Origin: an uncultured Spirochaetota bacterium
GTDB taxonomy: Bacteria; Spirochaetota; Brevinematia; Brevinematales; JAOACQ01
Length of the DNA stretch: 64,000 bases
Reading direction: 5' to 3'
Assembly: GCA_963835575.1 (NCBI GenBank)
Contig: CAWIGG010000004.1
Location: 544,001 to 608,000, forward strand
The position numbers and the translations under genes are program-made. How positions within the stretch are numbered: the stretch's first letter is position 1; every line of letters starts with the position of its first letter. Below, one piece after another: positions 4,464 through 61,136 of this stretch. Under the pieces are notes generated by a model, which was given only the letters and a program-made list of their open reading frames with translations, made no database searches and was not told where the DNA came from.

Positions 4464-4515
4464 ATCCGATTATCCACGCGGATTGACGCGGATTAAGCGG
4501 ATTTTCGCAGATTTA
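4464..4515 (+). repeat. left arm of island 1 (CGGATT-periodic inverted repeat)
   Basis: atccgattatccacgcggattgacgcggattaagcggattttcgcagattta; inverted partner at 9016-9066. Confidence 0.85.
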
Positions 4516-4607
4516 TTTGTAATAGATCAAATAAATTGCTTTAAATCAACCGATAATAAATTTGGCATTTAATTAACTGCATGCTATATTACTTATAAGG
4601 ATAATAT

Positions 4608-5165
4608 ATGATACCTTATCAAAAAGAAAAAATTGACAATGCCATCTGTTATTTTGCTAAAGAGTATAAAACAAAAGCAAGAAGATATCTGCCGCAAACC
4701 ATGCTTTATAAATTGCTTGCTTTTCTTGATATGGAAAGTGTTAAGGAAATAGGAATGCCGGTGCTTGGTCTTGATTATCTTGCGATGGAACGAGGTCCTG
4801 TACCTCCTGAAATTTACAATAAAAAACAGGAAACCGCTCTATATAAATTTGTGCCTGTTGGAGACAAAAAGTACGATGTTATCTGCAAAGGCAAACCGAA
4901 TCTGGATTATTTCTCCGATTATGAATTAGAAAAGATGGAAAGATTGATATTCATTCATGCTAATGCGGCAGTTAATACAAAACTTACAAGCCAGGCCAGT
5001 CATGATGAATTACCGGCATGGAAAAAAGCTTATAAGAAAAAACCTGATAGTAAAATTGATTTTGAAGATATGTTTGAAGAGAATCTCAAAGATAAAAGTC
5101 CGGAAAAACTATCGGCCGCAGAAGAACATTTTTTAATTCAAAAAGCAATCCTTGGACATAGGTAA
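4608..5165 (+). CDS. Panacea (DUF4065/SocA-like) antitoxin
   Basis: KLLAFLD...GLDYLAMERGPVP...SHDELPAW motifs typical of DUF4065. Confidence 0.8.
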   Translation: MIPYQKEKIDNAICYFAKEYKTKARRYLPQTMLYKLLAFLDMESVKEIGMPVLGLDYLAMERGPVPPEIYNKKQETALYKFVPVGDKKYDVICKGKPNLDYFSDYELEKMERLIFIHANAAVNTKLTSQASHDELPAWKKAYKKKPDSKIDFEDMFEENLKDKSPEKLSAAEEHFLIQKAILGHR

Positions 5166-5606
5166 ATGCAGGCGGGAACTGTCTTAAAATGGATAGATTT
5201 TCCCGAACCAATAGATGGGGAAATAAAACCAAGATGGTTTGTTTGTCTGGGAAGATCCTCAAGTTTATTCCCACCAGTATGTTATTATATTTGTACTACC
5301 ACAACTCAGATTTATCATTATGAATCGGGCGGGGATAGAGCACATCATCAGAATATCAGATTTAGAAAAAATGAATTCGAATTTGAGGATGATTGTGTTC
5401 TTGATCTGGAAAGTTATTACTATAAATCTGAAGAGTCGATAAAATTGAATGAAAATAATATACAGATTAAAGGGCTTCTTGAAAGGCAAATAATGATTCA
5501 AATTTATAATAAGATACTTAAATCAAAATGTTATTCAAAGATAATCAAGCAGGATATTCATTTCTCTTTTAATGAAGCTGGAATTACCGGCTTAAAAACC
5601 CCGTAA
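5166..5606 (+). CDS. putative toxin, possible PemK/MazF-like fold
   Basis: Abuts the Panacea gene (TAA-ATG); KPRWFVCLG...ICTTTTQ resembles the PemK KxRPxlv...iTT pattern. Confidence 0.45.
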   Translation: MQAGTVLKWIDFPEPIDGEIKPRWFVCLGRSSSLFPPVCYYICTTTTQIYHYESGGDRAHHQNIRFRKNEFEFEDDCVLDLESYYYKSEESIKLNENNIQIKGLLERQIMIQIYNKILKSKCYSKIIKQDIHFSFNEAGITGLKTP

Positions 5607-5704
5607 ACATCTTATTTATTTTACCTTTATTGCGATTTTCCCGCCTATTAAATATAATTTCTTATCGATAAATAGGGGAATTGTATAAGTAAGCGATATA
5701 AAAA

Positions 5705-8700
5705 ATGTTGAAAGAATACGTTAAGAATCTATTTAAAACTTTTTCCCATGGCGACGCCAGAGAAGAAAGCTATTACGAGCACCTTGCCGGTCTATTGAGG
5801 ATTATCTCGGAAGAAAAGAAAATTAAAAATATAGATGTGACAATTTTGCCGAAAAAAACCGAAGCGGGAAATCCGGATTTCCGTGTTTGGGATGGAAAGA
5901 CCCGCATTACCGGTTATATCGAAGCCAAAGACCCTTCAAAAACAGACCTTGATTCAATTGAGGATTCGGAACAGTTGAAACGCTACCGAAATACATTTCC
6001 AAATGTCATTCTGACCAATTTTTTTGAATTCCGACTGTATCGGGATGGAATATTGATTGACAGTATAAATATTGCCAGACATAAAATCCCGTTTGAACTT
6101 GGCACGGCGCCTCCCGTTGAAAAGGAAGACAAATTCATCGAACTTCTGGATAAATTTTTCTCCTATTCAATTCCCAATGTCAGCAGCGCGAAATCACTGG
6201 CGGAGGAACTGGCGAAAAGGACAAGATTCCTCCGCGATGAGGTGATCGCGGTCGAACTGGAAGAAGAAGCGAAGAATGGGAAAAAGAACATATTCGGGTT
6301 TTATGAGGCATTTAAAAAATACCTGATCGGCGACAGCCTTACCATTCTGCAGTTCGCAGACCTGTATGCCCAGACGATCACATACGGCCTCTTCGCGGCG
6401 CGCACAAGGGCGGACGGCAGTTTCAACCGCGAACTCGCCTATAAATACATTCCGAAAACAATCGGCATATTAAAGGATATATTCAAATTTATATCGCTGG
6501 AAGAACCGCCGAAACCATTAGAGATCATCGTGGACGATATAGCTGAAATTCTTAATGTCACAGATGTCAAAAAGATTCTGCGGGATTATTACCGGGAAGG
6601 TAAAGGCGGCGACCCGGTGGTACATTTTTACGAGACCTTTCTTGCCGATTATGACCCGGCCATGCGCGAAAAACGGGGCGTTTATTATACGCCGGAACCG
6701 GTCGTTAAATACATAGTGCGTTCAGTCCATCAGATATTAAAGACGGAATTCGGCCTTAATGATGGATTGGCAAGCAGGGAAGTAACACTTCTTGATCCCG
6801 CGGCGGGGACTCTGACATTTCCCGCGGAAGCCCTAAAATGCGCGGTGGATGAATACGTTTCAAAATACGGGGCCGGTGGAAAAACAAACCTGATTAGAAA
6901 TCAAATACTTCCAAATTATTACGCCTTCGAGCTGATGATGGCCCCCTATGCCATCGGCCACCTGAAGATAAGCTTTCTGCTTGAGGAACTGGGTTACAGC
7001 CTCGGCGACGAGGAGCGGTTTAACCTGTACCTGACCAATACGCTTGAGACAAAAGAACTGGACGCGGCGAACCTGCCGGGATTGAGTTCTTTAAGCGAGG
7101 AAAGCCATCTGGCGGGGAAGATTAAAAAGGAACAGCCGATTTTAGTCATTATGGGAAACCCGCCTTACAGCGGAATATCGTCGAACATAAACGAATGGAC
7201 AGAAAAGCTTTTGAAGACGAATTTAGACGGCGCGCAAAGCTATTACGAAGTCGACGGGAAACCGCTCGGTGAGAAAAAAGTATGGCTTCAGGATGATTAC
7301 GTCAAATTCCTGCGCTTCGCGCAGTGGAAAATCCAGAAGGCCGGTTTCGGCATCGCCGGTATGATCACCAACCATAGCTATCTGGACAACCCCACGTTCC
7401 GGGGAATGCGCCAGAGCCTGATGAAAACCTTTAACGAAATTTATATTATTGACCTGCACGGCAACAGCCTGAAAAAAGAGGCATGTCCAGACGGCTCAAA
7501 AGACGAGAATGTGTTCGATATTAAGCAGGGCGTGGCCATAGCCCTCTTTGTGAAACAGAAAGATAAGAAAGGGTGCAAAGTATTTCATCTTGATCAATAC
7601 GGCTTGCGGGAAGAAAAATACAGCTGGCTGGAAAATACGGGGTTCAAACGTGGAAGCTATAAAGAAATTAAACCCGAATCACCATGGTATTTCTTTGTGC
7701 CCCGCGATACGGAAAAGATAGCCAATTTCCTTAAATGGGAAAAAATAAATGATATTTTTCCCGTAAATGTTACCGGTATAGTGACAGCAAGGGATAGTTT
7801 TGTAATTGATTTTGAAAAATATTCATTACAAAATAAAATAATGCAATTTAAAAACAAATCAATTTCAGATGATGAGATTAGGGAAGCATTTAAACTGAAA
7901 GATACACGTGGCTGGAAACTATCAAAAGCAAGAAAAGAGCTTTTCACTGATATAAAATGGGATAAGTATTTTCAAAAAATATTATATCGTCCCTTTGATA
8001 TTAGAGACATTTATTATACCCCAAATATGGTTGATTGGGGCCGCCCTGAATTCATGCGCCACATGCTTAAGGAAAATGTTGGTTTAATTATTCCTCGTCA
8101 ATTCAAAGAAGAACCTGGAGCTTTTATTACTGAACATATTATTGGGCATAAAACGGTTAGCGCTTATGATATCAATTATATATTTCCACTATATTTATAT
8201 AAAAAGGATGATTCTGATAACGGTTCCGAACAGGAGCTTACTTTTGACCAATCGGAAGAATACGACAGTCTGAACCGCAAGCCGAATATTTCAAACGGAA
8301 TTTACCGGAAGCTTGAAACGATTTATAAAACAAAACTTACGCCCGAAGATATCCTTTATTATATTTACGGGATATTTTACAGCAACACTTACCGGGAAAA
8401 GTATGCCGAGTTTCTCCGTATAGATTTCCCGCGGGTACCGTTCACGTCCGATTATAAGCTTTTTAAACAAATGTTTGGGTATGGACAAAGTCTTGCTGAA
8501 CTGCATCTTTTGAAAAGCAATATGCTGGATAACCCCGTCTCAAAATATCAGGGCACAGACGGCAGCGACAGAATTGAAAAAATCGCTTACGATGAAAAGA
8601 CGCGGCGGGTTTATATCAATCAGGATAAATATTTTGACGATATTTCACCGGAATTATGGAATTACCAAATCGGCGGCTATCAGGTGCTGGAGAAGTATTT

Positions 8701-8839
8701 AAAGGACCGAAAAGGCCGGATGATGAACAACCCGCGGTATTACTGCCTGATTGTATCAGCGATAAGTAAAACGATTGAAATACAGAAAAAGATTGACGGG
8801 ATTTATAACAGAGTGGAAGAGAAGTTGATAGAATTTTGA
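5705..8839 (+). CDS. single-polypeptide restriction-modification enzyme (Type IIG / Type ISP-like, no helicase)
   Basis: N-terminal PD-(D/E)xK (GNPDF...IEAK), GVYYTP, LDPAAGT, NPPY N6A methyltransferase, ISP-type C-terminal specificity region (FPRVP, YQIGGYQVLEKYLKDR). Confidence 0.85.
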   Translation: MLKEYVKNLFKTFSHGDAREESYYEHLAGLLRIISEEKKIKNIDVTILPKKTEAGNPDFRVWDGKTRITGYIEAKDPSKTDLDSIEDSEQLKRYRNTFPNVILTNFFEFRLYRDGILIDSINIARHKIPFELGTAPPVEKEDKFIELLDKFFSYSIPNVSSAKSLAEELAKRTRFLRDEVIAVELEEEAKNGKKNIFGFYEAFKKYLIGDSLTILQFADLYAQTITYGLFAARTRADGSFNRELAYKYIPKTIGILKDIFKFISLEEPPKPLEIIVDDIAEILNVTDVKKILRDYYREGKGGDPVVHFYETFLADYDPAMREKRGVYYTPEPVVKYIVRSVHQILKTEFGLNDGLASREVTLLDPAAGTLTFPAEALKCAVDEYVSKYGAGGKTNLIRNQILPNYYAFELMMAPYAIGHLKISFLLEELGYSLGDEERFNLYLTNTLETKELDAANLPGLSSLSEESHLAGKIKKEQPILVIMGNPPYSGISSNINEWTEKLLKTNLDGAQSYYEVDGKPLGEKKVWLQDDYVKFLRFAQWKIQKAGFGIAGMITNHSYLDNPTFRGMRQSLMKTFNEIYIIDLHGNSLKKEACPDGSKDENVFDIKQGVAIALFVKQKDKKGCKVFHLDQYGLREEKYSWLENTGFKRGSYKEIKPESPWYFFVPRDTEKIANFLKWEKINDIFPVNVTGIVTARDSFVIDFEKYSLQNKIMQFKNKSISDDEIREAFKLKDTRGWKLSKARKELFTDIKWDKYFQKILYRPFDIRDIYYTPNMVDWGRPEFMRHMLKENVGLIIPRQFKEEPGAFITEHIIGHKTVSAYDINYIFPLYLYKKDDSDNGSEQELTFDQSEEYDSLNRKPNISNGIYRKLETIYKTKLTPEDILYYIYGIFYSNTYREKYAEFLRIDFPRVPFTSDYKLFKQMFGYGQSLAELHLLKSNMLDNPVSKYQGTDGSDRIEKIAYDEKTRRVYINQDKYFDDISPELWNYQIGGYQVLEKYLKDRKGRMMNNPRYYCLIVSAISKTIEIQKKIDGIYNRVEEKLIEF

Positions 8840-8841
8840 AC

Positions 8842-8889
8842 AATCCTGAAAATCCTCTTAAATCCTGTCAATCCTGCTCAATTGGGTTC
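8842..8889 (-). repeat. AATCCT(G) variant right arm
   Basis: aatcctgaaaatcctcttaaatcctgtcaatcctgctcaattgggtt; same periodicity, and the same AATTGGG end as 17927-17980 and 60868-60908. Confidence 0.7.
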
Positions 8890-9015
8890 TACTAAACCGG
8901 TTCAATTATATTATCCGATATTCTTTATAAAAATCTTCTGTCTACCGGGTCCCTCGGAATCCTGCTCCTATAAGTCAAACACCGAGTAAATTAAAAAGGC
9001 AGCTTTGAGAAAAAC

Positions 9016-9066
9016 TAAATCCTATAAATCCGCTCAATCCGTGAAAAGCCGCGTGAAAAATCGGAT
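9016..9066 (-). repeat. right arm of island 1
   Basis: Reverse complement atccgatttttcacgcggcttttcacggattgagcggatttataggattta matches 4464-4515 and 33551-33602. Confidence 0.85.
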
Positions 9067-9215
9067 ATTATAAACAGGAATACTAATATACAATACTTTA
9101 ATATGATAATTAAGCATAATTGAACATCAATTCCTCCCACCTTTTTTAATACCGCGCTTGAATTTTATTTTAAGGTATTATATACTTCTATTCAATAGTA
9201 ATAGGTGGAATAAAT

Positions 9216-9572: not shown

Positions 9573-9617
9573 CAAAACTATTTTTTTTAAATAATATATG
9601 AGTATATTTGAATATAT
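9569..9617 (+). promoter_or_regulatory. sigma70-type promoter with overlapping ArsR-like operator upstream of acr3
   Basis: TTGACA(9569)-N17-TAATAT; imperfect palindrome atatatgagtatatttgaatatat. Confidence 0.55.
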
Positions 9618-9649
9618 GTATTAGAGAATATGTTGCCGGGAGGATACCT

Positions 9650-15997: not shown

Positions 15998-16037
15998 TTT
16001 TAGGAAAGCATGAATCAATTAATTGCTAAAAAAGCTA

Positions 16038-16096
16038 TTATATCAACCCCAATTCAACACGGATTAGCACGGATGAAACAGATTTATGCGGATTTA
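16038..16096 (+). repeat. left arm of island 2
   Basis: ttatatcaaccccaattcaacacggattagcacggatgaaacagatttatgcggattta; partner at 17927-17980. Confidence 0.85.
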
Positions 16097-16197
16097 GTCG
16101 TAATAGAAAATGAGATAAATTGCTTTTTATCGATTAAATAGTTGTAAATATATATAATTGTTTTAAAATAATATAATTAAATTAGTGGAAATATATT

Positions 16198-17370
16198 ATG
16201 CAGAGTCTTAATGTTTCAGTTAATCCAATAATATTAAAATGGGCTCGTGAAAGATTGGGGCTTTCTATTGACAGTGTTGCTAAATTTTTGAAAAAAGATC
16301 CATCAATTATTATTCAATGGGAAAATGGTGAGAGTAAACCTACCTATGTTCAACTTGAAAAACTATCTTATCAATTATATAAAAGGCCATTAGCGGTGTT
16401 TTTTTTCCCAACCCCGCCTGATGAGCCAGAAATTACTAAATCTTTTAGAACTTTACCTGACATTGAAATTCAAAATTTTATTCCAGACACATATCTGGCA
16501 TTAAGGCAAGCACAATCAATGCAATTGGCTTTAAAGGAATTGAGTAATGATATTAATAAATCGGAAAAAAAGATTTTCTCTGATATAATTGTAGAAAATT
16601 TAGAAGATGTTATTTCTATCTGCTCTGAGATTAGAAGCTATCTTAATATTTCTATTGAAGAACAAATAAAGTGGATGAATGTAGACACAGCTTTAAAAAA
16701 TTGGAGAAAATTACTTGAGGATTCCGGGATTTATATTTTTAAGCGTTCATTTAAACAAAAAGAAATTTCCGGATTTTGCTTAATTGATATAGAATTTCCA
16801 ATTATATATTTAAATAATAGCACATCACAAAACCGACAGATATTTACAATATTTCATGAATTAGCCCATATTTTATTAAAAGTAAATGGAATGACAAAAG
16901 CCGATGATTCATATATTAATATTTTGGCAGGTATGAATAGAAATATTGAATATTTCTGTAATCAATTTGCCGGAGAATTATTAGTACCGTCGCAACATTT
17001 TAACTTAAATATAAAACAATTTCATGAGTTCAATGATGCTGCAATATATAAATTGGCAGACATATATAAGGTTAGTCGTGAGGTTATACTAAGGAAATTA
17101 ATAGATCGTAAATTAGTTGATGGTAGTATTTATGAATCAAAAGCAAATATTTGGGCAAAAGAATTTGAAAATAATCGCAAAGGGAAAAAGGGTGGGGATT
17201 ATTATTCAACACAGATTACTTATCTTGGTGATAAATTTCTAAAACTGGTTTTCAGCAAATATTATGAGGGGAGCTTCTCTATCGATCAAGTGGCTGATTA
17301 TTGCAATTTAAAAGTTAATAATATTGATAATTTAGAACATTATTTCATGAATAAGATGGCCAATATATGA
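16198..17370 (+). CDS. XRE-HTH plus ImmA/IrrE metallopeptidase
   Basis: N-terminal HTH (LKWARE...WENGESKP), FHELAH, CNQFAGELLVP. Confidence 0.9.
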   Translation: MQSLNVSVNPIILKWARERLGLSIDSVAKFLKKDPSIIIQWENGESKPTYVQLEKLSYQLYKRPLAVFFFPTPPDEPEITKSFRTLPDIEIQNFIPDTYLALRQAQSMQLALKELSNDINKSEKKIFSDIIVENLEDVISICSEIRSYLNISIEEQIKWMNVDTALKNWRKLLEDSGIYIFKRSFKQKEISGFCLIDIEFPIIYLNNSTSQNRQIFTIFHELAHILLKVNGMTKADDSYINILAGMNRNIEYFCNQFAGELLVPSQHFNLNIKQFHEFNDAAIYKLADIYKVSREVILRKLIDRKLVDGSIYESKANIWAKEFENNRKGKKGGDYYSTQITYLGDKFLKLVFSKYYEGSFSIDQVADYCNLKVNNIDNLEHYFMNKMANI

Positions 17371-17837
17371 TTTATATTTTTGATACCGGAGCTTTTATTG
17401 TAATAAGTCACTATTTTCCAGAAAGATTCCCTTCATTCTGGACAAAATTGAATGATTATGTGGAAAAAGGTTCTATTATATCAGTAAGGGAAGTATATAA
17501 TGAATTAAGCAACCATGGGAACAAACCTTTTTTGAAGAATTGGCTTGATAAGAATAAAGATATTTTCAGGATGCCTTCCGAAGATGAAATTAACTTTTTA
17601 AGCGAAATATTTCAAATCAATCATTTTCGTCAATTGATTGGGCAGGAACAGATTTTAAAAGGTAAACCAGTTGCTGATCCTTTTGTTATAGCTTCCGCAA
17701 GGATTAATAAAGGGTGTGTAGTTACTGAAGAAAGCTTTAAGATTAATGCTGCTAAAATACCTAATGTGTGCCAACATTTTTCGATTGATTGCACAAATAT
17801 TGAAGCATTTATGGAACGTGAAAAGTGGACATTTTAA
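17367..17837 (+). CDS. DUF4411 PIN-like protein
   Basis: YIFDTG, FPSFW, ADPFVIA, VVTEE, KIPNVC; ATGA overlap with the upstream gene. Confidence 0.85.
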   Translation: MIYIFDTGAFIVISHYFPERFPSFWTKLNDYVEKGSIISVREVYNELSNHGNKPFLKNWLDKNKDIFRMPSEDEINFLSEIFQINHFRQLIGQEQILKGKPVADPFVIASARINKGCVVTEESFKINAAKIPNVCQHFSIDCTNIEAFMEREKWTF

Positions 17838-17926: not shown

Positions 17927-17980
17927 TTCCGTGAAAATCCGTTCAATCCGCAAAAATCCGCGTTGAATTGGGTTATATAA
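17927..17980 (-). repeat. right arm of island 2
   Basis: Reverse complement ttatataacccaattcaacgcggatttttgcggattgaacggattttcacgga. Confidence 0.85.
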
Positions 17981-18058
17981 ACCAAGCTTAATAAAACGAA
18001 CAAAGGATTTTAATCCAATTTATTTTGTGTTACAGGTGTAGCCTGCCACCCTTTTCCA

Positions 18059-33480: not shown

Positions 33481-33550
33481 ACGGGGATAAAGATTTAATA
33501 CTGAAGCTTTTGAACAATTATGGATTTTATAAAAGAATTCTTTTTGTAAT

Positions 33551-33602
33551 ATCCGATTGTTCACGCGGATTTTCACGGATTTGGGTGGATTTTGAGGATT
33601 TA
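33551..33602 (+). repeat. left arm of island 3
   Basis: atccgattgttcacgcggattttcacggatttgggtggattttgaggattta. Confidence 0.85.
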
Positions 33603-33763
33603 GTTATTATTTAAGATAGTTGGGTCAGTAAAATTATTATTTTAATACAGAGGCGCTGAGAACGGGTAGAATGGTATTTAAGGTGATTTAAAACAGGGCA
33701 AATTAAGGGAAATTTGGTAGTGATTGTAATTTTGTTTGTAATTAGTTTAATGAAAATAAGAAA

Positions 33764-33797: not shown

Positions 33798-34535
33798 ATG
33801 AAAGATTTAAATATTATTCTTGAAGGTGAAGACATTCGTCTTGAAAAAACAGAACCTAATGATGTTCTTATAATACTATTTAATACAGTAAAACTGATGG
33901 ATTTGATTAAAAATAATTTTGATTACGGTGATTACTATATAACATCTTTGAAAACTGGGTCAATCGCCGCTTCCATATCTTGTCCGCCTGATTATACTGA
34001 AATGCTTTCTTTTATTCAGATGAATATTAAATCGGGATTTGAAAAAATAAAAAATTATCTTGAACCACTTCAAGAAATGAAAAAAATTGCACATAAATAT
34101 AATGCTGTGTTTTCTTTCAAAGAAAACACAAGATCTATTTTATCCATAGACAAAGATTTAGAGTTTTCAAGTATTGATTCTATAATAAATGTGATTCTTT
34201 CTGAATTTGGAATTATTGAGCGAATTGGTGGAGCTGAACCATCCATGGTTTTTAAAAATAGACATTCAGAGAGGTTTTCGATCCCTCTTTCTCAAGAAGA
34301 AGCAGTAAATTACAGTGGTCTTCTTTATAAAGAAGTAAAAGTAAAACTGGCCTGTAAAATGGATTTTACAACTAAAAAAATAATTCAGTGCGGACTTACC
34401 GATTTAACTAAATTAGAAGATAATCAAACCATTGAAAATTTTAATAATATTACTAATTCTATAAAAACAAAAATAAAAGGGATAAAAAATCCCTCCGATT
34501 TTATTCATAATCAGCGCCATGAGGAAGATGAATGA
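33798..34535 (+). CDS. hypothetical protein, putative partner of the PIN toxin
   Basis: 245-aa AT-rich ORF; ATGA overlap with the PIN gene. Confidence 0.7.
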   Translation: MKDLNIILEGEDIRLEKTEPNDVLIILFNTVKLMDLIKNNFDYGDYYITSLKTGSIAASISCPPDYTEMLSFIQMNIKSGFEKIKNYLEPLQEMKKIAHKYNAVFSFKENTRSILSIDKDLEFSSIDSIINVILSEFGIIERIGGAEPSMVFKNRHSERFSIPLSQEEAVNYSGLLYKEVKVKLACKMDFTTKKIIQCGLTDLTKLEDNQTIENFNNITNSIKTKIKGIKNPSDFIHNQRHEEDE

Positions 34536-34999
34536 AAAAATCAGTTATATTTTTAGATACGGATATAATCAGTTATTTTCTCTCTGATGATGAAGGATTG
34601 GATGATGATGCTAAAAAAGCAAAGAAAAATGTTTTTAAAATAATAGAGCATATCATTGAAGAAAAATCCCATAATTTTGCAGTTTCTGCCCTATCATACA
34701 GTGAGTTATCAGTAATTTCAGATATAGAAGAAAGCCTGAATAAAGTTTTTTCTTTTTTTCAGATTGTTGATTATGATTTTCAATGCGCTAATTATTATAC
34801 TAAACTACACAGGCAGTATGATAATAGAAGACTTAAAACTGATAGGATGATTTTAGCAACAGCGGCAAGATATGGAGCCGCTTATTTTATTACCAATAAT
34901 ATAAAAGATTATAGTAATTATGATATCAAACCTACTACAATCCTATCATTAGACCAGGCCATGGAAGTATTTGGATTATCTCAAACCCTTTTTGAATAG
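34532..34999 (+). CDS. PIN-domain (VapC-like) protein
   Basis: FLDTDII, SELS, DRMILATA, FITNNIKDY. Confidence 0.85.
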   Translation: MKKSVIFLDTDIISYFLSDDEGLDDDAKKAKKNVFKIIEHIIEEKSHNFAVSALSYSELSVISDIEESLNKVFSFFQIVDYDFQCANYYTKLHRQYDNRRLKTDRMILATAARYGAAYFITNNIKDYSNYDIKPTTILSLDQAMEVFGLSQTLFE

Positions 35000-35199
35000 G
35001 GTTACAAAAATAGTTTACTTTACTACATCGACAAGCTAGATAAAAATAAACGCAAATCATGTCTATGTTTTAATTAATAAGGAAAATAGCTCAAATTAGA
35101 TATTCTTATACACCGGACGTAGCCCCAAAACTCCTTCCACAAACGTTCTATAACATTTTCTACATCAAGAAATAGTTAAAGGCAGCTTCCAATAATGTG

Positions 35200-35243
35200 A
35201 AATCCTATTAAATCCGTCTTAATCTGTGCAAATCAGTTCTTCA
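35200..35243 (-). repeat. degenerate right arm of island 3
   Basis: aaatcctattaaatccgtcttaatctgtgcaaatcag; preceded by aaaggcagctt-N11 exactly as at the island 1 right arm. Confidence 0.7.
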
Positions 35244-52590: not shown

Positions 52591-52656
52591 TTTATATTTA
52601 TAAATCAATGCCTTAAAGAATGATTAAAAACTCAAATAATGCTACTTGATTGTACT

Positions 52657-52816
52657 GATCCGATTCTGCACGCGGATGACGCGGATTATTCGGATTCGCG
52701 CGGATCGGCTGATTGCTTCCGTTATCATAAAGTCAGCGCATCAGATTTTTTTTAAAAATAACGGTCTTGACAGTAAAACATTAATTTTTAAAATGATTGT
52801 AATAAATTTCGTATAT
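52657..52816 (+). repeat. left arm plus promoter module, copy 1
   Basis: gatccgattctgcacgcggatgacgcggattattcggattcgcgcggat, then ~110 bp incl. TTGACA-N16-TAAAAT; direct repeat at 55011-55172. Confidence 0.85.
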
Positions 52817-52959: not shown

Positions 52960-54355
52960 GAGTTTTTGTCAAATGTTGTGTATGACATACCCTCTCATTT
53001 TTTTATGCTGCCTTTTTTACAAGCTCTCCGTTCTCAAAAACAGCGCCTTCCAATACAAGGCTAATCTTTTCATAACCTCTTAATTTTCTCCATCGCCTGG
53101 ATGCCTTATCCAGTAATTTATAGACCATTATTAGAATCGTTTCCCTGGTTCCGCAGCCTCTCATCTTTTTAGTTCTTAATCGAACTGTAGAGAAGGTAGA
53201 TTCTATTACGTTTGTCGTACGGATATGTACCCAATGTTCCGCCGGACAGTTATAAAATTCGATCATAAGCTCCCAATCCTTTTCTAAACATTCGACAGCT
53301 GCTGGATATTTAGGATTAAAAACCGCCTGGAATAATTCAAAAGCTTTGATAGCATTATCCTTATCAGGAGCATTGCATATCTCATGAAGCATCTCTTTTG
53401 CCTTTGACTGTAATACTTTGGGCAGCTTGTTTAGAATGTTCTTTATCTTATGAACCCAGCATCTCTGCCATCTGGATTCAGGATATACTTCTTTGGCTGC
53501 TTTCCAGAATCCAAGGCTTCCGTCTCCGATAAAAAGAATAGGACCTTTCAAACCTTTTTCTTTTAGGTTTCTTAATATCCCTAACCAAGTCTCGGAATTC
53601 TCTCTGTAACCTTCTTCAACAAGAATAATCTCCTTTTCACCATTCTCATTGGCTCCGATCATTACAAGAGTGCATAAACGGTCTTCGCTGCCCTGTACAT
53701 TGAAGTAAATGCCGTCAACCCATATATAGCAATACTTTTTATCGCTTAAATCGGATGTCCGCCACTCATCATATTCTTTACCCCATCCTTGTTTCATTCT
53801 GCTTATACTTGAGGCTGATAATCCTTTCGCTTCTTCACCAAGCAATCCTCTCAAGGCATTCTCCATATCCATCTCTGAGACTCCATAGAGATACAACAAT
53901 GGAATGGCTTCCTCAATTCTCAGGCTTTTTCTCATATACGGCGGTACTATTAGGCTTTGAAAATTGTCGCCTCCGAGTCGGTTCCTTGTTCTCGGAATAC
54001 ATACATCAATAGCCCCTCCACCAATGAGAATCTGACGGGCTTTATGATACCCATTTCTTACTATTGCCTTTCTCCCGTCTTCGATAGTTAAATGCTCTCT
54101 CTCCTGAAGAAACCCATTAATTTCATCTTCCAGAGCCTTCTTGATTATTTCCCTGGCCCCGATCCTTGCCAATTCTTCAAGACATAAAAATTCTACTGTT
54201 TCATCTTGATTAAAAGCCTGTAAGAGCTTAAAATCTTCGTTGTGCTTCGGCATATGGCGTATTCCTCCTTTTGTTTATTGTCGTAAATAAATTATAGAGG
54301 GTACGCCATCTTTTTTATAATATTTATTCCTATACACAACTTTCTATTATAACTC
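52960..54355 (-). mobile_element. IS256-family insertion sequence, copy 1 (1396 bp)
   Basis: Imperfect TIRs GAGTT...GTTGTGTAT; 8-bp TSD TACCTGAA at 52952-52959 and 54356-54363. Confidence 0.95.
53003..54253 (-). CDS. IS256-family transposase
   Basis: RNGY, WVDGIY, IGDG, QRCWVHK, RTTNVIES. Confidence 0.95.
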   Translation of the reverse strand: MPKHNEDFKLLQAFNQDETVEFLCLEELARIGAREIIKKALEDEINGFLQEREHLTIEDGRKAIVRNGYHKARQILIGGGAIDVCIPRTRNRLGGDNFQSLIVPPYMRKSLRIEEAIPLLYLYGVSEMDMENALRGLLGEEAKGLSASSISRMKQGWGKEYDEWRTSDLSDKKYCYIWVDGIYFNVQGSEDRLCTLVMIGANENGEKEIILVEEGYRENSETWLGILRNLKEKGLKGPILFIGDGSLGFWKAAKEVYPESRWQRCWVHKIKNILNKLPKVLQSKAKEMLHEICNAPDKDNAIKAFELFQAVFNPKYPAAVECLEKDWELMIEFYNCPAEHWVHIRTTNVIESTFSTVRLRTKKMRGCGTRETILIMVYKLLDKASRRWRKLRGYEKISLVLEGAVFENGELVKKAA

Positions 54356-54660
54356 TACCTGAAAGAGATTATATTATATTCATTAATGAAGTCACTCGTT
54401 TGTATATCTATTTTAATTATAATAGAACTGAATTATTGAATTTTGTTGTTAAATTAGAGATAATATATTTAAATAAATGGACTGAGATTGAACGTTATGA
54501 CTGCTATCATGACATTGTCCATAAGGACATTTTAAATAAAAAAGGGAAGAAAATTAAATCCATTCGTTTTCCTCTGGTTGATAGAAAAGCAGGTGTTAAT
54601 TTTGCCGTTAATGATTTTAGAGAAAATTTTGAATTGTATGTCTGGAGGTTCTTAAAATGA
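54356..54660 (+). pseudogene. small RYDxxH..H putative toxin (DUF7718/TumE-like), 5' end hit by IS256
   Basis: Frame open from the TSD (PERDYIIF...ERYDCYHDIVHKD); the AAAGGA RBS is left on the other side of the IS. Confidence 0.55.
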
Positions 54661-54830: not shown

Positions 54831-55010
54831 ATCTGCGTTTAAACAATTTTTCTAATTGGTTCCGGGCACGGCATCTTATACGACGTTTGACGCTGTGCTC
54901 CCCGGCCTTCGCAAAGCCGCGGCCTGCGGCGCTCGTGTTCGCCCTGCCGCGGGTAGGCAGGAAATTATTATATTCACAAGCCTTTTTAACTAAAACATAA
55001 GCATGTTCTA

Positions 55011-55172
55011 ATATCCGATTGTTCACGCGGATCAGCACGGATAGGACGGATTTGCGCAGAGCAGCCTGATTGTTTCCAGCATTATAAAGTCAACACATCA
55101 GATTTTTAAAAAAATACCGGTCTTGACAGTAAAGTATTGCTTTATTAAGATGAATGAAATAAATTTCATATA
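55011..55172 (+). repeat. left arm plus promoter module, copy 2
   Basis: atatccgattgttcacgcggatcagcacggataggacggatttgcgcaga, then TTGACA(55123)-N17-TAAGAT. Confidence 0.85.
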
Positions 55173-56820
55173 TAAAGAGTTGAATAAAGAGGAGATTAAT
55201 TATGAATAAGACAAATCAGGCTGTTATTAAAATAGATCTGTGTGGTTCTAAAAAATATTACGAAAAAAACAAATATTCCGAACCAAATATTACTCAAATA
55301 ACTTTAGATAAACTTTTATCCGTTGTTAAAGAAATATTTCCATATTCAAATTTAGATTTTCCAAAAGGTAGTTTATATGCAAGGCAAGGTGATTGTGTTT
55401 ATATAATTTTAGATAAAGCCACAATTGCATTACGATCATCAATAGAGTTTATGAAAAAATGGTTTAGTATTTTACCAAGTTTACCAGATTGTAGAGCAAT
55501 AATTGATTATGGTGAAATATCAATTGATGATAGTAGACCTAGAATTGAACTTATTTCAGAATGTTTTGAGAACATTAGTGTAATAGAAAAATCTTACGGC
55601 GCTGGAGAAATTGGTGTCACGGAGGCATTAAAAAATAATTCCGATAATACATTAGTCCAATTTATTAAAAAAAAGAAAATTGATATAACAGAAGGTAGAT
55701 TTGTTAATGTTTTTCAAGCCAATTATGAAGACCCTCGATTATTTCAAGATAGTAGTTTAATTCATTCATTATTCGTGGCTTCATCGGACACAAGTAATGC
55801 AAGAGAAATGGCTATTGAAGCCCTAATTCTCGAATGTTTAATTGAAAGAATCAACAAACCGATTTCATTAATAGATTTAAATTACTGGTTAAAATATAAA
55901 AATTGCCCTCAAATTGATCAATTATTAATAGATGGTATTATACAAAAATCAAAGTACATATCGAAAGATAAGGAAAATAACATTGTTTTTAAAAGTTCAG
56001 ATACAATTAAGGAGTTAAATGTTATTAAAGAAGATTTTGAAGCACAACGTGATGATACTATTAAAAAAATAGCTTTATATTTAAGCGATGGTTTGGGTTT
56101 GGACACCTCGATAGTGAATAAAGAATTAAACTTGACTGATCTTGTTGAGAAATATTTATGCGCTGTATTTTTAGAAATTCGTTTTATGGCAAATTACTTC
56201 AAATCCACACAACTATTGTTTGAAAAATTATCTTCTGATGAAGATTTTGATTATATAATAAAATCGCATTTATCAAATAGTAATTCCATAGGTATAGAGC
56301 AATTTGCATTATTAAAGAAATTATTTCTTGATGCATTGACAAATGTAGCAACAAAAAACAATAAATATATTGCATCAATATTCCATAATATACTTATGAT
56401 ATATTATTTAAACCGCAGTGAAAAATATATCCACTCTCAATTAGAAATAATGAAACAAAAGGAAATTTATATTGATACAAATGTTCTTTATTCAATAAAA
56501 TGTAAATATAGTCAATATCATGATATGCTGACATATATAATTGATAATTTAAACAGACTTGGAGCTCAGATATTTGTTTTTGAAAAAAGTGTGGCTGAAT
56601 ATAATGATTCATTAACTACAACTTTTAAAAAATATAAAAATGATACACTCAATTTTTTACATCAAGAGAAAAAACCTTGGATATGGTATGAATATGAAAA
56701 TAATATTAATTCATACCAAAATAGTTTTGAATATTGCATTTCTTTGCATCATATACCAATAAATACAAATAATTCAATTGATGATAGTTTCGAAGAAGCC
56801 AGAAAAGAATTATCTCAAAG

Positions 56821-58216
56821 GAGTTATAATAGAAAGTTGTGTATAGGAATAAATATTATAAAAAAGATGGCGTACCCTCTATAATTTATTTACGACAATA
56901 AACAAAAGGAGGAATACGCCATATGCCGAAGCACAACGAAGATTTTAAGCTCTTACAGGCTTTTAATCAAGATGAAACAGTAGAATTTTTATGTCTTGAA
57001 GAATTGGCAAGGATCGGGGCCAGGGAAATAATCAAGAAGGCTCTGGAAGATGAAATTAATGGGTTTCTTCAGGAGAGAGAGCATTTAACTATCGAAGACG
57101 GGAGAAAGGCAATAGTAAGAAATGGGTATCATAAAGCCCGTCAGATTCTCATTGGTGGAGGGGCTATTGATGTATGTATTCCGAGAACAAGGAACCGACT
57201 CGGAGGCGACAATTTTCAAAGCCTAATAGTACCGCCGTATATGAGAAAAAGCCTGAGAATTGAGGAAGCCATTCCATTGTTGTATCTCTATGGAGTCTCA
57301 GAGATGGATATGGAGAATGCCTTGAGAGGATTGCTTGGTGAAGAAGCGAAAGGATTATCAGCCTCAAGTATAAGCAGAATGAAACAAGGATGGGGTAAAG
57401 AATATGATGAGTGGCGGACATCCGATTTAAGCGATAAAAAGTATTGCTATATATGGGTTGACGGCATTTACTTCAATGTACAGGGCAGCGAAGACCGTTT
57501 ATGCACTCTTGTAATGATCGGAGCCAATGAGAATGGTGAAAAGGAGATTATTCTTGTTGAAGAAGGTTACAGAGAGAATTCCGAGACTTGGTTAGGGATA
57601 TTAAGAAACCTAAAAGAAAAAGGTTTGAAAGGTCCTATTCTTTTTATCGGAGACGGAAGCCTTGGATTCTGGAAAGCAGCCAAAGAAGTATATCCTGAAT
57701 CCAGATGGCAGAGATGCTGGGTTCATAAGATAAAGAACATTCTAAACAAGCTGCCCAAAGTATTACAGTCAAAGGCAAAAGAGATGCTTCATGAGATATG
57801 CAATGCTCCTGATAAGGATAATGCTATCAAAGCTTTTGAATTATTCCAGGCGGTTTTTAATCCTAAATATCCAGCAGCTGTCGAATGTTTAGAAAAGGAT
57901 TGGGAGCTTATGATCGAATTTTATAACTGTCCGGCGGAACATTGGGTACATATCCGTACGACAAACGTAATAGAATCTACCTTCTCTACAGTTCGATTAA
58001 GAACTAAAAAGATGAGAGGCTGCGGAACCAGGGAAACGATTCTAATAATGGTCTATAAATTACTGGATAAGGCATCCAGGCGATGGAGAAAATTAAGAGG
58101 TTATGAAAAGATTAGCCTTGTATTGGAAGGCGCTGTTTTTGAGAACGGAGAGCTTGTAAAAAAGGCAGCATAAAAAAATGAGAGGGTATGTCATACACAA
58201 CATTTGACAAAAACTC
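56821..58216 (+). mobile_element. IS256-family insertion sequence, copy 2 (1396 bp)
   Basis: Same ends and same transposase as copy 1; 9-bp TSD ATCTCAAAG at 56812-56820 and 58217-58225. Confidence 0.95.
56923..58173 (+). CDS. IS256-family transposase
   Basis: Protein identical to 53003-54253. Confidence 0.95.
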   Translation: MPKHNEDFKLLQAFNQDETVEFLCLEELARIGAREIIKKALEDEINGFLQEREHLTIEDGRKAIVRNGYHKARQILIGGGAIDVCIPRTRNRLGGDNFQSLIVPPYMRKSLRIEEAIPLLYLYGVSEMDMENALRGLLGEEAKGLSASSISRMKQGWGKEYDEWRTSDLSDKKYCYIWVDGIYFNVQGSEDRLCTLVMIGANENGEKEIILVEEGYRENSETWLGILRNLKEKGLKGPILFIGDGSLGFWKAAKEVYPESRWQRCWVHKIKNILNKLPKVLQSKAKEMLHEICNAPDKDNAIKAFELFQAVFNPKYPAAVECLEKDWELMIEFYNCPAEHWVHIRTTNVIESTFSTVRLRTKKMRGCGTRETILIMVYKLLDKASRRWRKLRGYEKISLVLEGAVFENGELVKKAA

Positions 58217-59015
58217 ATCTCAAAGTAAAATACATTTAGTAAAATTAGAACCTTATTTAGATGAAAATTCCTTAAAGAATGTATTCAACTTAGTTTATAA
58301 TGCTAAGAAAGATTATAAATCTGAATTTGACCTCTATGGTGTTCCATATGATTCGGAATTTTATAAAATGAAGGTTTTACATGACTCAAATTGTTTATAT
58401 AAATTGAAATCAAAAGCGTCAAACCCCTTTGAAGCCAAACAATTATTTGTCACATGTGATTATCATTTAACTAAGGTCCGAAAAATTGAAAGAAATGAAT
58501 ATGAATTTTTAGTAGCAATAACTGAATTCTACGAATTTATATTACCTTATTTATTTCTATCAGATTCTGTAACTGCAAATCCAATCGAGATGCCTAATTT
58601 TTTATTAGCATCTGCACTTTCTATTGATCTATCAAATATTTTAGATTTAGACTCAATGATTGGTAGATATTTAATTCACGATAAAAATATTAACCAAAGA
58701 CATGAAATAATATCGAAATTAAAAGAAACAGAAAGATTTAATTCAATAAAGAAAAAACATGAAACTTTATTTAAACAAAAAAATGATGTAATTACAAAAG
58801 AAGAAATTAGTGATTTCATTTTTGAAGTTAATAATTTATCAAAAGATTATAAACAAGAAGTAAAAAATCAACTTGTAAAAAACATTACACAAAAAACAAT
58901 TTTTGATAAAGATAGTCAGATTTCTCAGCTAAAAGAAGTAAATGAAGCTTTACTTCTTGAACTTGAAAAATATAAGAAAAAAGAAAAAGGTACTAATTAT
59001 TACTTTAAGATGATG

Positions 59016-60690
59016 TTGCCTGTCGGTTTTTATAACATGCTTCATGGACATACGGCAGGGTTCCCGTTAAAATAAAACGGGAGAAAAAGATGGCAAGATT
59101 TGAAAAGAACAGCCTGGAGCAGGGTGAGTTCCTCGCGATCAATATAGGCGAGCAGTTTGATGAGAATTCCAGAGAATTTATACTAAAAGAATTCATCAAA
59201 AACCGTATTAAACTGGAGGATTTCGCGGCTTACTATAAGAACGACCATAGAGGCAGAGAGATTAAAAATCCTCGGGATGTGATCTGTGCGGTACTCTACG
59301 GTTACATTACGGGAAATCGTATCAGCCGAAAGATAGAAGATTTGCTGAAAAAACACATTGGGTTTATGTATGTTTCAAACCGGCTGAAAATTGACCATTC
59401 GGTAATTTGCGAGTTCAAGGTACTTTTTCAGGAAAAGATCGAGGAGTTGTTCAGCCAGCTTTTATATATACTCAACGAAATGGGGTCTATAGATTGGGAC
59501 ATGGTAGTGGGTGACGGCACAAAGATCAAGGCCTACGCGAGTAAGAATAAGAATGTGGGAAAGAAACATACCCGGAAGCTGATGGACACTTACCAGAAGA
59601 TGGCGGAAAAGATTGTGAAACAAGACCTGGAACTGGAAGAATCTTACCGGGAAGGCAAGCTGGAGCAGCCTTATTACGAAGCGGAGAAGAAGCGGGTATC
59701 AAGGCGGAAAAAGATTTACGATAGTGTTTTGAACCAAATCGATGAATACAAAAAACAGGTAGAGAGAGGGGAAAAGACAGACGAAGAATTCACCAACCTG
59801 ACTGATCCCGAAAGCAAGCTGATGTCTGGAAATCCGCATAGTGTGTTTATACAGGGATATAATTCGGCGATGATGGTCAGTAATAATGATGTGATTATAG
59901 ATTTTGAAGCAATCACAACACCGGAAAAACAGCATACGGAAGAAATGGTAAAGAGGGTGGAACAGAAAAAAGCGGAATTAAAAGTTGATAAGGCTAGCAA
60001 ATACCTTTTTGATTCGGGTTTTCAGGACATGGAAGAGACAATCCGGATGGTGGAGGAAGGAAAAGACCTTTATGTGGATACGAAAGAGCGGGATTTCAGT
60101 GATAAATCACAGAAGCGAAGAGACTTTAAACTGGAAAAGATTGATGACGAATATATCCTGGGATGCCGGGGCGGCCGTAAGGAAAATGGGTATTTAGATC
60201 GAAATAACCAAAGATATACATTTTTGTATTCACGGAAGGGCTGTGAAAGATGTCCATTTTTCAGTGAGTGTTATAAAAACATCAAACCGAAAACACAGCA
60301 AAAGACAGTAATTTTCAGTGAGTTTGAATTGAATAATCGGTCTAAGATTGATGCTTATTTAACAAAACTTTACAGCGAAGAAGGGCAAAAGATATACAAC
60401 CGCAGGATAGGTAAAGAACACGTATTTTCAAACATCAAAACACAGAAGGGTTATGTTCAGACAGTTTACAGAGGTCAACGGAAAGTGAATTTGGAGCTAT
60501 GCTGGGTATCCCTTGCGCATAATTTTATGAAATATGCCCAATATTTGAGAAAATAGAGAGGATTTTGTATAGTCTGAGTATCGATTATTCGAAATTTATT
60601 ATTAAAATCAGCTAAGCTGACAAAATTTTTATTTGCCCGCTTATTGTAAGGGGCTGGTTTGACTCCGAAAATGAAATAACCGACAGGCAA
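59016..60690 (+). mobile_element. IS1182-family insertion sequence (1675 bp)
   Basis: 13-bp TIR TTGCCTGTCGGTT/AACCGACAGGCAA; 4-bp TSD GATG. Confidence 0.85.
59090..60556 (+). CDS. IS1182-family transposase
   Basis: LYGY..G.RISRKIE, GDGTKIKAYAS, TDPESKLM, QGYN, DSGF, EHVFSNIK, AHN. Confidence 0.85.
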   Translation: MARFEKNSLEQGEFLAINIGEQFDENSREFILKEFIKNRIKLEDFAAYYKNDHRGREIKNPRDVICAVLYGYITGNRISRKIEDLLKKHIGFMYVSNRLKIDHSVICEFKVLFQEKIEELFSQLLYILNEMGSIDWDMVVGDGTKIKAYASKNKNVGKKHTRKLMDTYQKMAEKIVKQDLELEESYREGKLEQPYYEAEKKRVSRRKKIYDSVLNQIDEYKKQVERGEKTDEEFTNLTDPESKLMSGNPHSVFIQGYNSAMMVSNNDVIIDFEAITTPEKQHTEEMVKRVEQKKAELKVDKASKYLFDSGFQDMEETIRMVEEGKDLYVDTKERDFSDKSQKRRDFKLEKIDDEYILGCRGGRKENGYLDRNNQRYTFLYSRKGCERCPFFSECYKNIKPKTQQKTVIFSEFELNNRSKIDAYLTKLYSEEGQKIYNRRIGKEHVFSNIKTQKGYVQTVYRGQRKVNLELCWVSLAHNFMKYAQYLRK

Positions 60691-60867
60691 GATGGAAAAA
60701 AGAAATAAAAGAAATAAAAAATAATACACCATCTGTAGTTTTCCTTTAAAGCAAGTTTCGGCCCCTCACAGTAGATTCTTTTGTAGAACCTAATTTTTAA
60801 TGACGGCAATACGGCTTTGACACTTGCTTATAAAGCCGGAGCTAAATAAATTAGAAATGTCTTGCGA

Positions 60868-60908
60868 TAAATCCCGAACAATCCTGTTAATCCTGCAAAA
60901 TTGGGGTC
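60868..60908 (-). repeat. AATCCT(G) variant right arm
   Basis: aaatcccgaacaatcctgttaatcctgcaaaattggggt. Confidence 0.6.
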
Positions 60909-60989
60909 AGTACAATAGTTTCAATCAAATAAAAAAGGACATTTGTATTAAAATATTTTGTCTATCGGTCGTAGCCTATATCTTCACCT

Positions 60990-61020
60990 CCTCCGTGCCT
61001 TCAGTGAACTCTGTGGTTAA
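60990..61020 (-). repeat. CACAGAG-family right arm of island 4
   Basis: Reverse complement ttaaccacagagttcactgaaggcacggag. Confidence 0.65.
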
Positions 61021-61085
61021 TTTAAAACGTATATCAGATATAACCCAGTCACGAATTGAACTAAAAAGCAGTTCGGCATAAAATA

Positions 61086-61136
61086 AAATCCGTGCAAATC
61101 CGCCTCATCCGTGTTATCCGTGTGCTGAATCGGATC
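61086..61136 (-). repeat. right arm of island 4
   Basis: Reverse complement gatccgattcagcacacggataacacggatgaggcggatttgcacggattt aligns to 52657-52705. Confidence 0.85.

Follow-up and report, generated by a model that had tools for sequence, protein, structure and literature searches.

Inverted arms of periodic repeat words bracket AT-rich accessory genes in an uncultured Brevinematales bacterium

Mobile insertion cassettes of the MIC231 type are non-autonomous elements with terminal inverted repeats. Repetitive extragenic palindromic (REP) sequences and REPINs (REP doublets forming hairpins) are 20-40 bp palindromes that carry a GTAG or CGTC tag and are probably served by the REP-associated tyrosine transposase (RAYT). 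Integron cassettes carry one attC site each and form co-oriented arrays beside an integrase with attI, sedentary chromosomal integrons being one form. Intervening sequences of 23S rRNA carry an S23p (four-helix-bundle) open reading frame (ORF) and are removed by RNase III, while cooperatively bound repeat arrays occur in Tn7, in Mu, in the subterminal repeats of plant Ac and En/Spm, and as the heptad operators of ribbon-helix-helix repressors (omega, pSM19035). Miniature inverted-repeat transposable elements (MITEs) and Tn3-derived inverted-repeat miniature elements (TIMEs) are likewise non-autonomous elements with terminal inverted repeats and sometimes passenger genes (PMC3913671, PMC4133298), and REP sequences include GTAG- or CGTC-tagged superfamilies (PMC3733652). 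We analyzed a 64,000-nucleotide stretch (the window, contig CAWIGG010000004.1, here C4, positions 544001-608000; assembly GCA_963835575.1) of an uncultured Spirochaetota bacterium of the Brevinematales, whose genome (label G000) comprises 4.39 Mb in 7 contigs at about 42% GC. In it, arms made of periodic short words face each other across AT-rich accessory genes. This repeat system is real, statistically solid and unusual. The reading that we favor, at a probability of roughly 0.5, is that of a non-autonomous cassette family acting at the DNA level, whose inverted arms would be ends served in trans by a word-specific protein.

Reading of the sequence showed the same build at all 11 arm sites in the window, an outer leader followed by words at steps of 9-10 bp. 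Leader and periodic words were read in plus-strand arms at 4464, 16038, 33551, 52657 and 55011 and in minus-strand arms at 9016, 17927, 35200 and 61086; two AATCCT variants, at 8842 and 60868, are arms of a second class. The word is CGGAT in class 1 arms and CAGGAT in class 2 arms. Leaders are of the ATCCGATT type (class 1) or the CCCAATT type and form a conserved stretch of about 20 bp. The pattern CGGATT-N3-4-CGGATT occurred 8 times in the window against 0.06 expected, and no more than once in any of 100 shuffles.

We then searched the whole genome with nhmmer (cut-off E<1e-3), using profiles seeded with 65 class 1 and 26 class 2 arms. The total was 155 arms, 111 of the CGGAT type and 44 of the CAGGAT type. 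Within the window the profiles recovered exactly the 11 sites that a preliminary description of this DNA had listed, where 2.26 would be expected from the genome-wide density (Poisson P=2.5e-5). The same description had put four units in each arm, about 9-10 bp apart, and both values held: 338 of 350 word intervals measured 9 or 10 bp (mean 9.4-9.5), and four was the most frequent word number per arm. Arms were 55-70 bp long, and the midpoints of 134 of the 155 fell outside ORFs as called by a crude ORF caller. Conserved positions recurred at the word period, with variable spacers that were T-rich after the words, and conservation faded beyond about 14 nt outward of the leader core. A scan of the window against Rfam at the gathering threshold returned one tRNA and nothing else.

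The arm units resemble mobile insertion cassettes, MITEs and TIMEs in several ways: inverted ends (here inward-facing arms with a conserved leader at both ends) surround passenger genes that have no relation to transposition, empty miniature versions exist, no transposase lies inside, and the units are intergenic. The ends differ in being word arrays with free spacers and not a fixed inverted repeat. With the cooperatively bound arrays they share a phased short word, a conserved word beside a free spacer, and direct and inverted sets; this likeness concerns a possible mode of working and carries no claim of membership, and the protein that would bind the arms is putative. By analogy, arm cassettes may work most like mobile insertion cassettes or MITEs that have repeated protein-binding sites near their ends.

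The preliminary description had also proposed that the arms come in inward-facing pairs, and the genome-wide counts agreed. Neighboring arms formed 45 inward and 46 outward pairs, of which 32 of 45 and 7 of 46, respectively, lay within 6 kb (one-sided binomial P=3.5e-5). Among the inward pairs within 6 kb, 13 were empty, with arms no more than 300 bp apart, and 19 were spaced by 0.3-6 kb. The empty ones have loops of 16-300 bp and are predicted to fold into long hairpins. We counted 36 candidate units altogether, 14 without an ORF of at least 60 aa and 22 with ORFs, 4 of the latter in the window. The genes flanking the 19 filled pairs were convergent in 11 cases, tandem in 8 and divergent in none.

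Neighboring arms in the same direction were often 110-160 bp apart and formed a recurrent composite end, in the order class 1 arm, conserved non-coding module (about 110-130 nt) and class 2 arm. An alignment of 26 candidates gave at least 18 genome copies of the module. The 18 copies have no ORF in common, and their only consensus structure is a 4-bp mini-hairpin, so we dropped the ideas of a small RNA and of a peptide gene. Many class 2 arms come after a terminator-like hairpin, and an inward extension with a sigma-70-like promoter (type C; seen by eye) is conserved at six class 1 arms. In cassettes 1-3 of the window, the space from the left arm to the first ORF also contains promoter-like sites. 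Separately, locus L016 (C4:900183-914619) holds two RlmL-like methyltransferase genes (9773-10891 and 11957-13096 of that locus) that are 95.9% identical over 1133 bp; they stand around a composite arm end and a toxin-antitoxin pair of a helix-turn-helix (HTH) protein and Gp49, and represent a recent duplication that includes an arm.

The features of the window are as follows.

4452..4520, plus strand: left arm of cassette 1, class 1, ATCCGATT leader and CGGAT words (nhmmer E<1e-3, sequence reading)
4562-4590: promoter-like site of cassette 1
4608..8839, plus strand: cargo block 1, GC 0.39
4608-5165, plus strand: Panacea/SocA-like antitoxin, cargo 1 (Pfam)
5166-5606, plus strand: 146-aa ORF without a family, cargo 1
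5705-8839, plus strand: Type ISP/IIG restriction-modification enzyme, cargo 1 (Pfam; PADLOC REase_MTase_IIG, E=9e-258)
8839..8899, minus strand: class 2 arm, inner part of the composite right end of cassette 1, CCCAATT leader and CAGGAT words
8900..9010, minus strand: conserved non-coding module between the class 1 and class 2 arms, ending in a terminator-like hairpin
9011..9078, minus strand: right arm of cassette 1, class 1
16036..16100, plus strand: left arm of cassette 2, CCCAATT leader with CGGAT words
16198..17837, plus strand: cargo block 2, GC 0.285
16198-17370, plus strand: HTH-ImmA/IrrE metallopeptidase, cargo 2 (Pfam; PADLOC RmrA/CapP-like)
17367-17837, plus strand: DUF4411 protein, cargo 2 (Pfam)
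17927..17981, minus strand: right arm of cassette 2
33540..33607, plus strand: left arm of cassette 3, class 1, followed by a conserved "type B" inner extension
33764-33791: promoter-like site of cassette 3, 11 of 12 matches
33798..34999, plus strand: cargo 3, a 245-aa ORF without a family and a PIN (VapC-like) protein, GC 0.29 (Pfam; NCBIfam VapC hint)
35194..35237, minus strand: right arm of cassette 3, degenerate, with a changed leader
52645..52709, plus strand: first of two left arms, class 1, GATCCGATTC subtype, followed by the inward sigma-70-like promoter of a "type C" extension
53003..54253, minus strand: insertion sequence (IS) of the IS256 family, Mutator-type transposase, one of many copies 99.5-100% identical (Pfam)
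54400..54660, plus strand: DUF7718 ORF (Pfam)
55004..55060, plus strand: second left arm, class 1, with type C promoter extension
55202..59075, plus strand: cargo block of the second left arm, GC 0.34, no family at threshold
55202-56884, plus strand: 560-aa ORF
56923-58173: IS256 copy between the 560-aa and 295-aa ORFs
58188-59075, plus strand: 295-aa ORF
59090..60556, plus strand: IS1182/IS5-like transposase (DDE_Tnp_1_6, DUF772; Pfam)
60853..60918, minus strand: class 2 arm, inner part of the composite right end
61079..61141, minus strand: right arm, class 1, of the same GATCCGATTC subtype as the arm at 52645

The 560-aa and 295-aa ORFs, now split by an IS256 copy, may once have been a single gene.

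The DNA between the arms is AT-rich accessory DNA. Inner GC was lower than flank GC in 19 of 19 filled pairs (means 0.325 and 0.451; Wilcoxon P=1.3e-4). By Pfam and PADLOC, the cargo included a Panacea protein with a Type ISP/IIG enzyme, ImmA/IrrE with DUF4411, an ORF of no known family with a PIN protein, HicA, HTH with Gp49, an AriA-like ATPase with a second IIG enzyme, two PD-T4-6-type Ser/Thr kinases, a PycC-like cyclase, a DNA methyltransferase (MTase_II) and DUF2971 (PDC-S31). About half of the cargo ORFs matched no family; for one single-gene cargo a TIR-like fold is a lead from a language model only. The first three of these combinations are the ones that the preliminary description had named, and Pfam likewise identified the IS256-type and IS1182-type insertions that it had placed between the arms. 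Its "cyclase-PIN" label for the 560-aa ORF did not survive, since the PIN_3 match was sub-threshold (E=0.033) and the language-model lead to guanylate cyclases was weak (score 0.80). When 84 cargo proteins were compared all against all by BLAST, relatedness was confined to IS copies, to the two Type ISP enzymes, which are 38.6% identical, and to small or unannotated ORFs, which gave three weak pairings.

The description of the cargo as defense genes was upheld in part. PADLOC matches at E<=1e-5 were found for 16 of 83 cargo proteins and 7 of 67 flank proteins. Those in the cargo include two full-length IIG restriction-modification enzymes, two kinases of the PD-T4-6 type, and PycC-like, AriA-like, PDC-S31 and MTase_II proteins, and those in the flanks are an ABC ATPase, DprA, ThiF, a histidine kinase and other housekeeping proteins of this sort; an enrichment for defense is thus suggestive and not statistically clear. 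The claim that no core gene is bracketed held within the window, while genome-wide two of four doubtful arm spans of about 9 kb contained housekeeping-like genes, probably as a result of chance arm neighbors.

We asked what has been conserved in the arms. Partner arms were no more alike than the background: identity was 0.663 in class 1 (background 0.685, n=17) and 0.643 in class 2 (background 0.653, n=7). Predicted duplexes between arms had energies of -48.5 kcal/mol for 32 partner pairs, -45.1 kcal/mol for non-partners and -20.9 kcal/mol for shuffled arms. Word and phase have been kept and partner complementarity has not, which favors recognition of the word by a protein over a purely RNA-pairing constraint, and in an old family speaks against the recent burst of a fixed repeat. 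Of the two mechanisms offered in the preliminary description, protein-binding arrays therefore fit better than long-range stems specific to each pair.

These energies bear on the explanation, which we consider quite unlikely, that the arms pair in a read-through transcript and that an enzyme such as RNase III cuts the stem and thereby removes the cassette in the manner of a 23S rRNA intervening sequence. The partner duplexes are far more stable than shuffled ones, empty elements are predicted to fold into long hairpins, and cassettes lie downstream of genes or between co-directional genes, never between divergent ones. As in the rRNA intervening sequences, the unit would be closed by a long stem of inverted ends, and those sequences are known to carry four-helix-bundle genes, a gene family related to the wider class of elements to which we assign the arms below. 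Yet non-partner arms are predicted to pair nearly as well, and there is no excess of partner similarity; selection for pairing alone should leave compensatory changes specific to each pair and not fix one word in 155 arms. The arm cassettes also lie outside rRNA, their stems are predicted only, and their own promoter-like sites lie inward of the left arm, so that a cassette's own mRNA would lack the 5' arm. A role at the RNA level may exist in addition to one at the DNA level.

To see the sites in relatives, we compared four genomes of the same genus, which are about 70% identical in core genes, as the preliminary description had proposed. At the cassette 3 locus, between an Fe-S gene and thiC, the interval is 3190 bp here (33386-36576) and 114, 133, 193 and 687 bp in the four congeners, the 687 bp of the fourth being other DNA; no arm was present in the three congener sequences read. 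A cassette between polA and dprA is missing from all four, and in the two read at this site the stop codons are 26-55 bp apart with no arm. The gap between an MBL gene and dnaN measures 1338 bp here and 18, 26, 72 and 352 bp in the congeners (gap lengths only). Between purE and an epimerase gene, one congener has 23 bp and the remaining three have other DNA, with no arm seen in the one of these three filled spacers that was read. On the right of cassette 2, synteny with the four congeners starts directly past the arm, at about 18114, and the ars operon on its left is found elsewhere in them. At the first four of these loci, arms and cargo are jointly absent from the orthologous sites of the congeners. 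A further locus (L009), with a cassette between response-regulator and histidine-kinase genes, was set aside because the congeners do not keep the gene pair.

Two neighborhoods seen in this comparison deserve mention in their own right. The purE-epimerase spacer in G001, G002 and G004 (L051-L053) contains 1.4-6 kb of unrelated other DNA and is therefore a recurrent site of insertion; in G001 it is occupied by a 386-aa ORF that, from its sequence, we guess to be a secreted repeat protein. In the window, an arsenic block occupies 9216-15729 between cassettes 1 and 2, with outward-facing arms on both sides, and encodes ArsR, an ACR3-type SBF protein, DGC, an ArsP permease, thioredoxin, a DsbD-like protein, a low-molecular-weight (LMW) phosphatase, a second ArsR and a methyltransferase. 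As parts of this block map elsewhere in the same-genus genomes, the entire stretch between about 4450 and 17980 probably forms a single composite accessory region.

The arm family is restricted to this species. A strict class 1 pattern occurred 26 times here, not at all in the four congeners, and once each in 3 of 26 further relatives, and a strict class 2 pattern occurred 21 times here and was absent from the 400 other genomes of this phylum that were scanned. Among 185,579 genomes, each from a different species, there were 25 single matches; the six of these that were read included three convincing arms, two of them in Brevinematales records and one in a Spirochaetota record. Viral contigs gave two single matches, one with just two words and the other an ambiguous array of 3-4 words. 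We saw no arms at 9 other Spirochaetota loci with homologs of the ImmA/IrrE cargo, three of which were read by eye, the word-array detector used on homolog flanks being weak enough to overlook the left arm already known at cassette 2. Within the genome itself, paralogous sites gave no uninterrupted counterpart from which exact ends could be taken, as the flank matches were IS copies or other arms; the one promising case proved to be two IS copies beside paralogous genes.

Small AT-rich cassettes rich in toxin-antitoxin and unknown genes, together with a site-like repeat that is uniform in the species and absent from cargo homologs elsewhere, recall sedentary chromosomal integrons. On one explanation, which we regard as highly improbable, the arms would be attC-like sites of an integron-like tyrosine recombinase and the units promoter-poor, dispersed integron-type cassettes. 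An integron cassette has one attC, but here the cargo lies inside two inverted arms (19 inward against 6 outward pairs at 0.3-6 kb), and the units are not arrayed but spread over 5 contigs. The arm consensus, read by eye, lacks the GTTRRRY/RYYYAAC cores of attC. No integrase adjoins the arms: among 23 tyrosine-recombinase (PF00589) matches, two Xer-like genes alone have an arm within about 20 kb. This explanation thus fails every integron feature tested.

The arms have one informative occurrence outside this genome. At a metagenome locus (L088), the present arm type, leader and CGGAT words, stands on both sides of a gene for a 138-aa GxxExxY protein. The cassette is present there in two tandem copies of 576 bp (5929-7131), which are separated and flanked by three copies of a 40-nt direct repeat, the 3' end of a host gene, and it restores a stop codon for the host ORF. 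In another metagenome contig, arms adjoin a VapBC-like pair. The L088 case ties the arm family to a wider group of GxxExxY and four-helix-bundle (PF13366/PF05635) cassettes with word arrays. All 10 GxxExxY or four-helix-bundle genes of the present genome have inverted word arrays, built from other words, and those of relatives have arrays on both sides in 7 of 9 cases and on one side in 2 of 9. The preliminary description had mentioned periodic repeats near such genes in other genomes, and these counts bear it out. Literature searches on GxxExxY and PF13366/PF05635 genes, on mobile cassettes and on toxin-antitoxin genes with repeats turned up no description of such arms, judging by titles and the starts of abstracts.

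The two kinds of cassette have in common inverted arrays of a short word around a small unit between host genes, and both exist as empty hairpins. They differ in period (9-10 bp here, 7-8 bp there), in the conserved leader of about 20 bp and the roughly 155 copies in one species found here, and in cargo, since the units here carry accessory genes, toxin-antitoxin and restriction-modification genes among them, over 0.6-6 kb in place of a small nuclease gene. No CGGAT/CAGGAT arm in this genome has a GxxExxY or four-helix-bundle passenger.

Word arrays of other kinds were seen at several places. A solitary array of another word (CGCAAAG/CACAAAG type) stands at window 33445-33480, upstream of cassette 3 and about 70 bp from its left arm, and arrays of different families are often stacked side by side in the genome. 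The genome's single four-helix-bundle (PF05635) gene, at C6:1960-2720, has about 10 tandem copies of a 14-nt unit (GCTAACAGCCAGAA type) in front of it and, behind it, shorter arrays made of the same word or related ones. At 23 places in the genome, for example C2:481005, C2:1037571, C3:118097 and C5:320260, a GC-rich motif of about 25 nt (core GGCAGGCTCACCACAAG) lies between two words inside arrays of at least four word families, as if inserted.

The L088 cassette and the distribution of the arms have consequences for two further explanations. The first, which we consider very unlikely, is that the arms are architectural or silencing boundaries, in which phased words bend DNA or bind a nucleoid protein and thereby insulate or silence AT-rich genes, and which are kept by selection and not by mobility. 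Spacing by one helical turn, T-rich spacers after the words, the constant bordering of AT-rich DNA, the terminator-like hairpins before many class 2 arms and the inward promoters after some class 1 arms would all suit a boundary. Such a role leaves unexplained why, in a single species, dozens of sites with unrelated insertions should all have identical arms, why there are empty hairpins, and why the same arms surround a nuclease gene of another organism.

The second, which we judge unlikely, takes the empty hairpin, a MITE- or REPIN-like element, as the basic unit, and foreign DNA and IS copies would have landed in its center, the filled units not being mobile. The 13 empty hairpins with their short loops, the frequency of IS copies inside the brackets, the homologs of the cargo that stand elsewhere without arms, and the combination of old arms with cargo that still looks foreign are all consistent with such landing pads. 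There is, however, no known mechanism that puts gene units without a recombinase and with promoters precisely into the center of a hairpin. At L088 the arms directly abut the GxxExxY gene and the whole unit is bounded by the 40-nt direct repeat, which indicates one unit, and the inner extensions (the module, type B and the promoter-bearing type C) are conserved along with the arms. The congeners cannot discriminate here because the hairpins are missing there too.

In the reading that we favor, an arm would consist of the leader of about 20 bp and about four copies of the word, one per helical turn, and so form an array of putative protein-binding sites for a word-specific protein supplied in trans. 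The family would be part of a wider, apparently undescribed class of "word-armed" elements, whose native passenger may be a small GxxExxY (PD-(D/E)XK) nuclease gene or a four-helix-bundle gene, and it would have spread in this Brevinematales-like lineage to about 155 arms. Some arms would form empty hairpins, two arms with a short loop, and others would bracket foreign AT-rich units with promoter-like sites of their own, such as toxin-antitoxin pairs, restriction-modification enzymes, kinases, and TIR-like and cyclase-like genes. The cargo would have been captured between arms within this lineage and not imported along with them. The 9 loci at which cargo homologs stand without arms count in favor of the reading as a whole. 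The first candidate for the enzyme would be a nuclease of the GxxExxY family. Protein binding, mobility or capture, and the identity of the enzyme are what we infer from the arms.

Several results weigh against this reading. Flanking direct repeats, searched in the 90-bp flanks of 30 pairs, gave a longest shared string of 7.2 against 6.9 in controls, so that no target duplication of the kind expected from mobile insertion cassettes, MITEs and TIMEs was detected, those of 2-5 bp lying below resolution with congeners about 70% identical. No recurrent transposase or recombinase was present between the arms by cargo annotation or all-against-all BLAST, and no autonomous partner with the same ends turned up in the genome, metagenome or viral scans. 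The transposases that do lie between arms belong to IS256, IS5/IS1182, IS21 and IS481 copies; these we assume to have ends of their own, since nearly identical copies are found between arms that are not identical. The arm family is old and divergent: one pair in the genome is 97% identical and every other pair is at most 87% identical, unlike near-identical MITE-like copies from recent bursts and unlike the IS256 copies at 99.5-100%, so the family shows no sign of current activity. Partner arms often differ in leader type and right ends are often composite, neither of which a simple transposon model predicts. The nine GxxExxY proteins of this genome reach a best identity of 50% to the arm-bearing one of L088, for which reason none of them was retained as the cognate of the arms, and PADLOC matches are not clearly enriched in the cargo.

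One further observation concerns the arms of highest similarity. An arm pair at C2:307050-307375 and C4:940345-940525 is 95.6% identical over 182 bp and is part of a longer unit that starts with TGTCCAAAT. The C2 copy of this unit has a 12-nt direct repeat (TGCTGTCCAAAT) around about 310 bp that include a complete hairpin, and the C4 copy is truncated, so this pair yielded no clean ends. One DNA run assembled on window 16001-36000 gave short, low-depth contigs identical to the window, some of them within cassettes 2 and 3; none of them bridged an arm, and they have no bearing on excision or expression.

Two other enzymes were considered and rejected. With REP and REPIN elements the arms share being species-specific, abundant, intergenic, hairpin-forming inverted doublets thought to be served in trans by a single enzyme, but they are longer (55-70 bp) and periodic, lack a GTAG or CGTC tag, and have kilobases of cargo between them. 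A Y1 transposase was rejected because the sole RAYT-like gene of the genome is flanked by GTAG hairpins of its own, of another kind, and not by these arms. This 182-aa ORF (Y1_Tnp, 27.8 bits; C2:500550-501100, L059:3050-3598, minus strand) has GTAG-tagged hairpins upstream, inside and downstream, and four different word arrays are stacked just upstream of it. On contig C5, a 1207-aa Eco57I/TaqI-type restriction-modification enzyme (L058, 3850-7473) contains an internal match to an IS200-like Y1 transposase (E=1.9e-8), and two arms lie 0.5-2 kb downstream. A GIY-YIG enzyme was rejected because the sole intact small gene (99-aa frame, C4:1026468) is flanked by another repeat family. There are two further genome matches to GIY-YIG (PF01541) besides the intact gene and a truncated remnant. 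The remnant (51-aa frame, 3 stops) is enclosed by an inward arm pair at C2:667037-667489 and is preceded by a type B extension and an array of CAGAG words.

More broadly, phased-word inverted arms might be the ends of a widespread, undescribed system of capture or mobility run by the GxxExxY (PF13366) family and perhaps the four-helix-bundle family, an extension of our reading that we put forward tentatively. If the arms are instead decayed MITE ends, this would be an ordinary repeat family that is unusually rich in cargo. In practice, the profile of the arms delimits accessory units of this lineage at single-gene resolution. If the arms are recognized by a protein, two very large and unexplained families of small genes, GxxExxY and four-helix-bundle, would gain a testable function, toxin-antitoxin and defense genes would have a route for being packaged and set among housekeeping genes with neither an integrase nor a transposase of their own, and there would be a second system, besides integrons, for how genes gain recombination or packaging sites. 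A capture system of this kind would package and disperse whole defense and toxin-antitoxin modules beyond its own small gene, as a dispersed counterpart of the integron.

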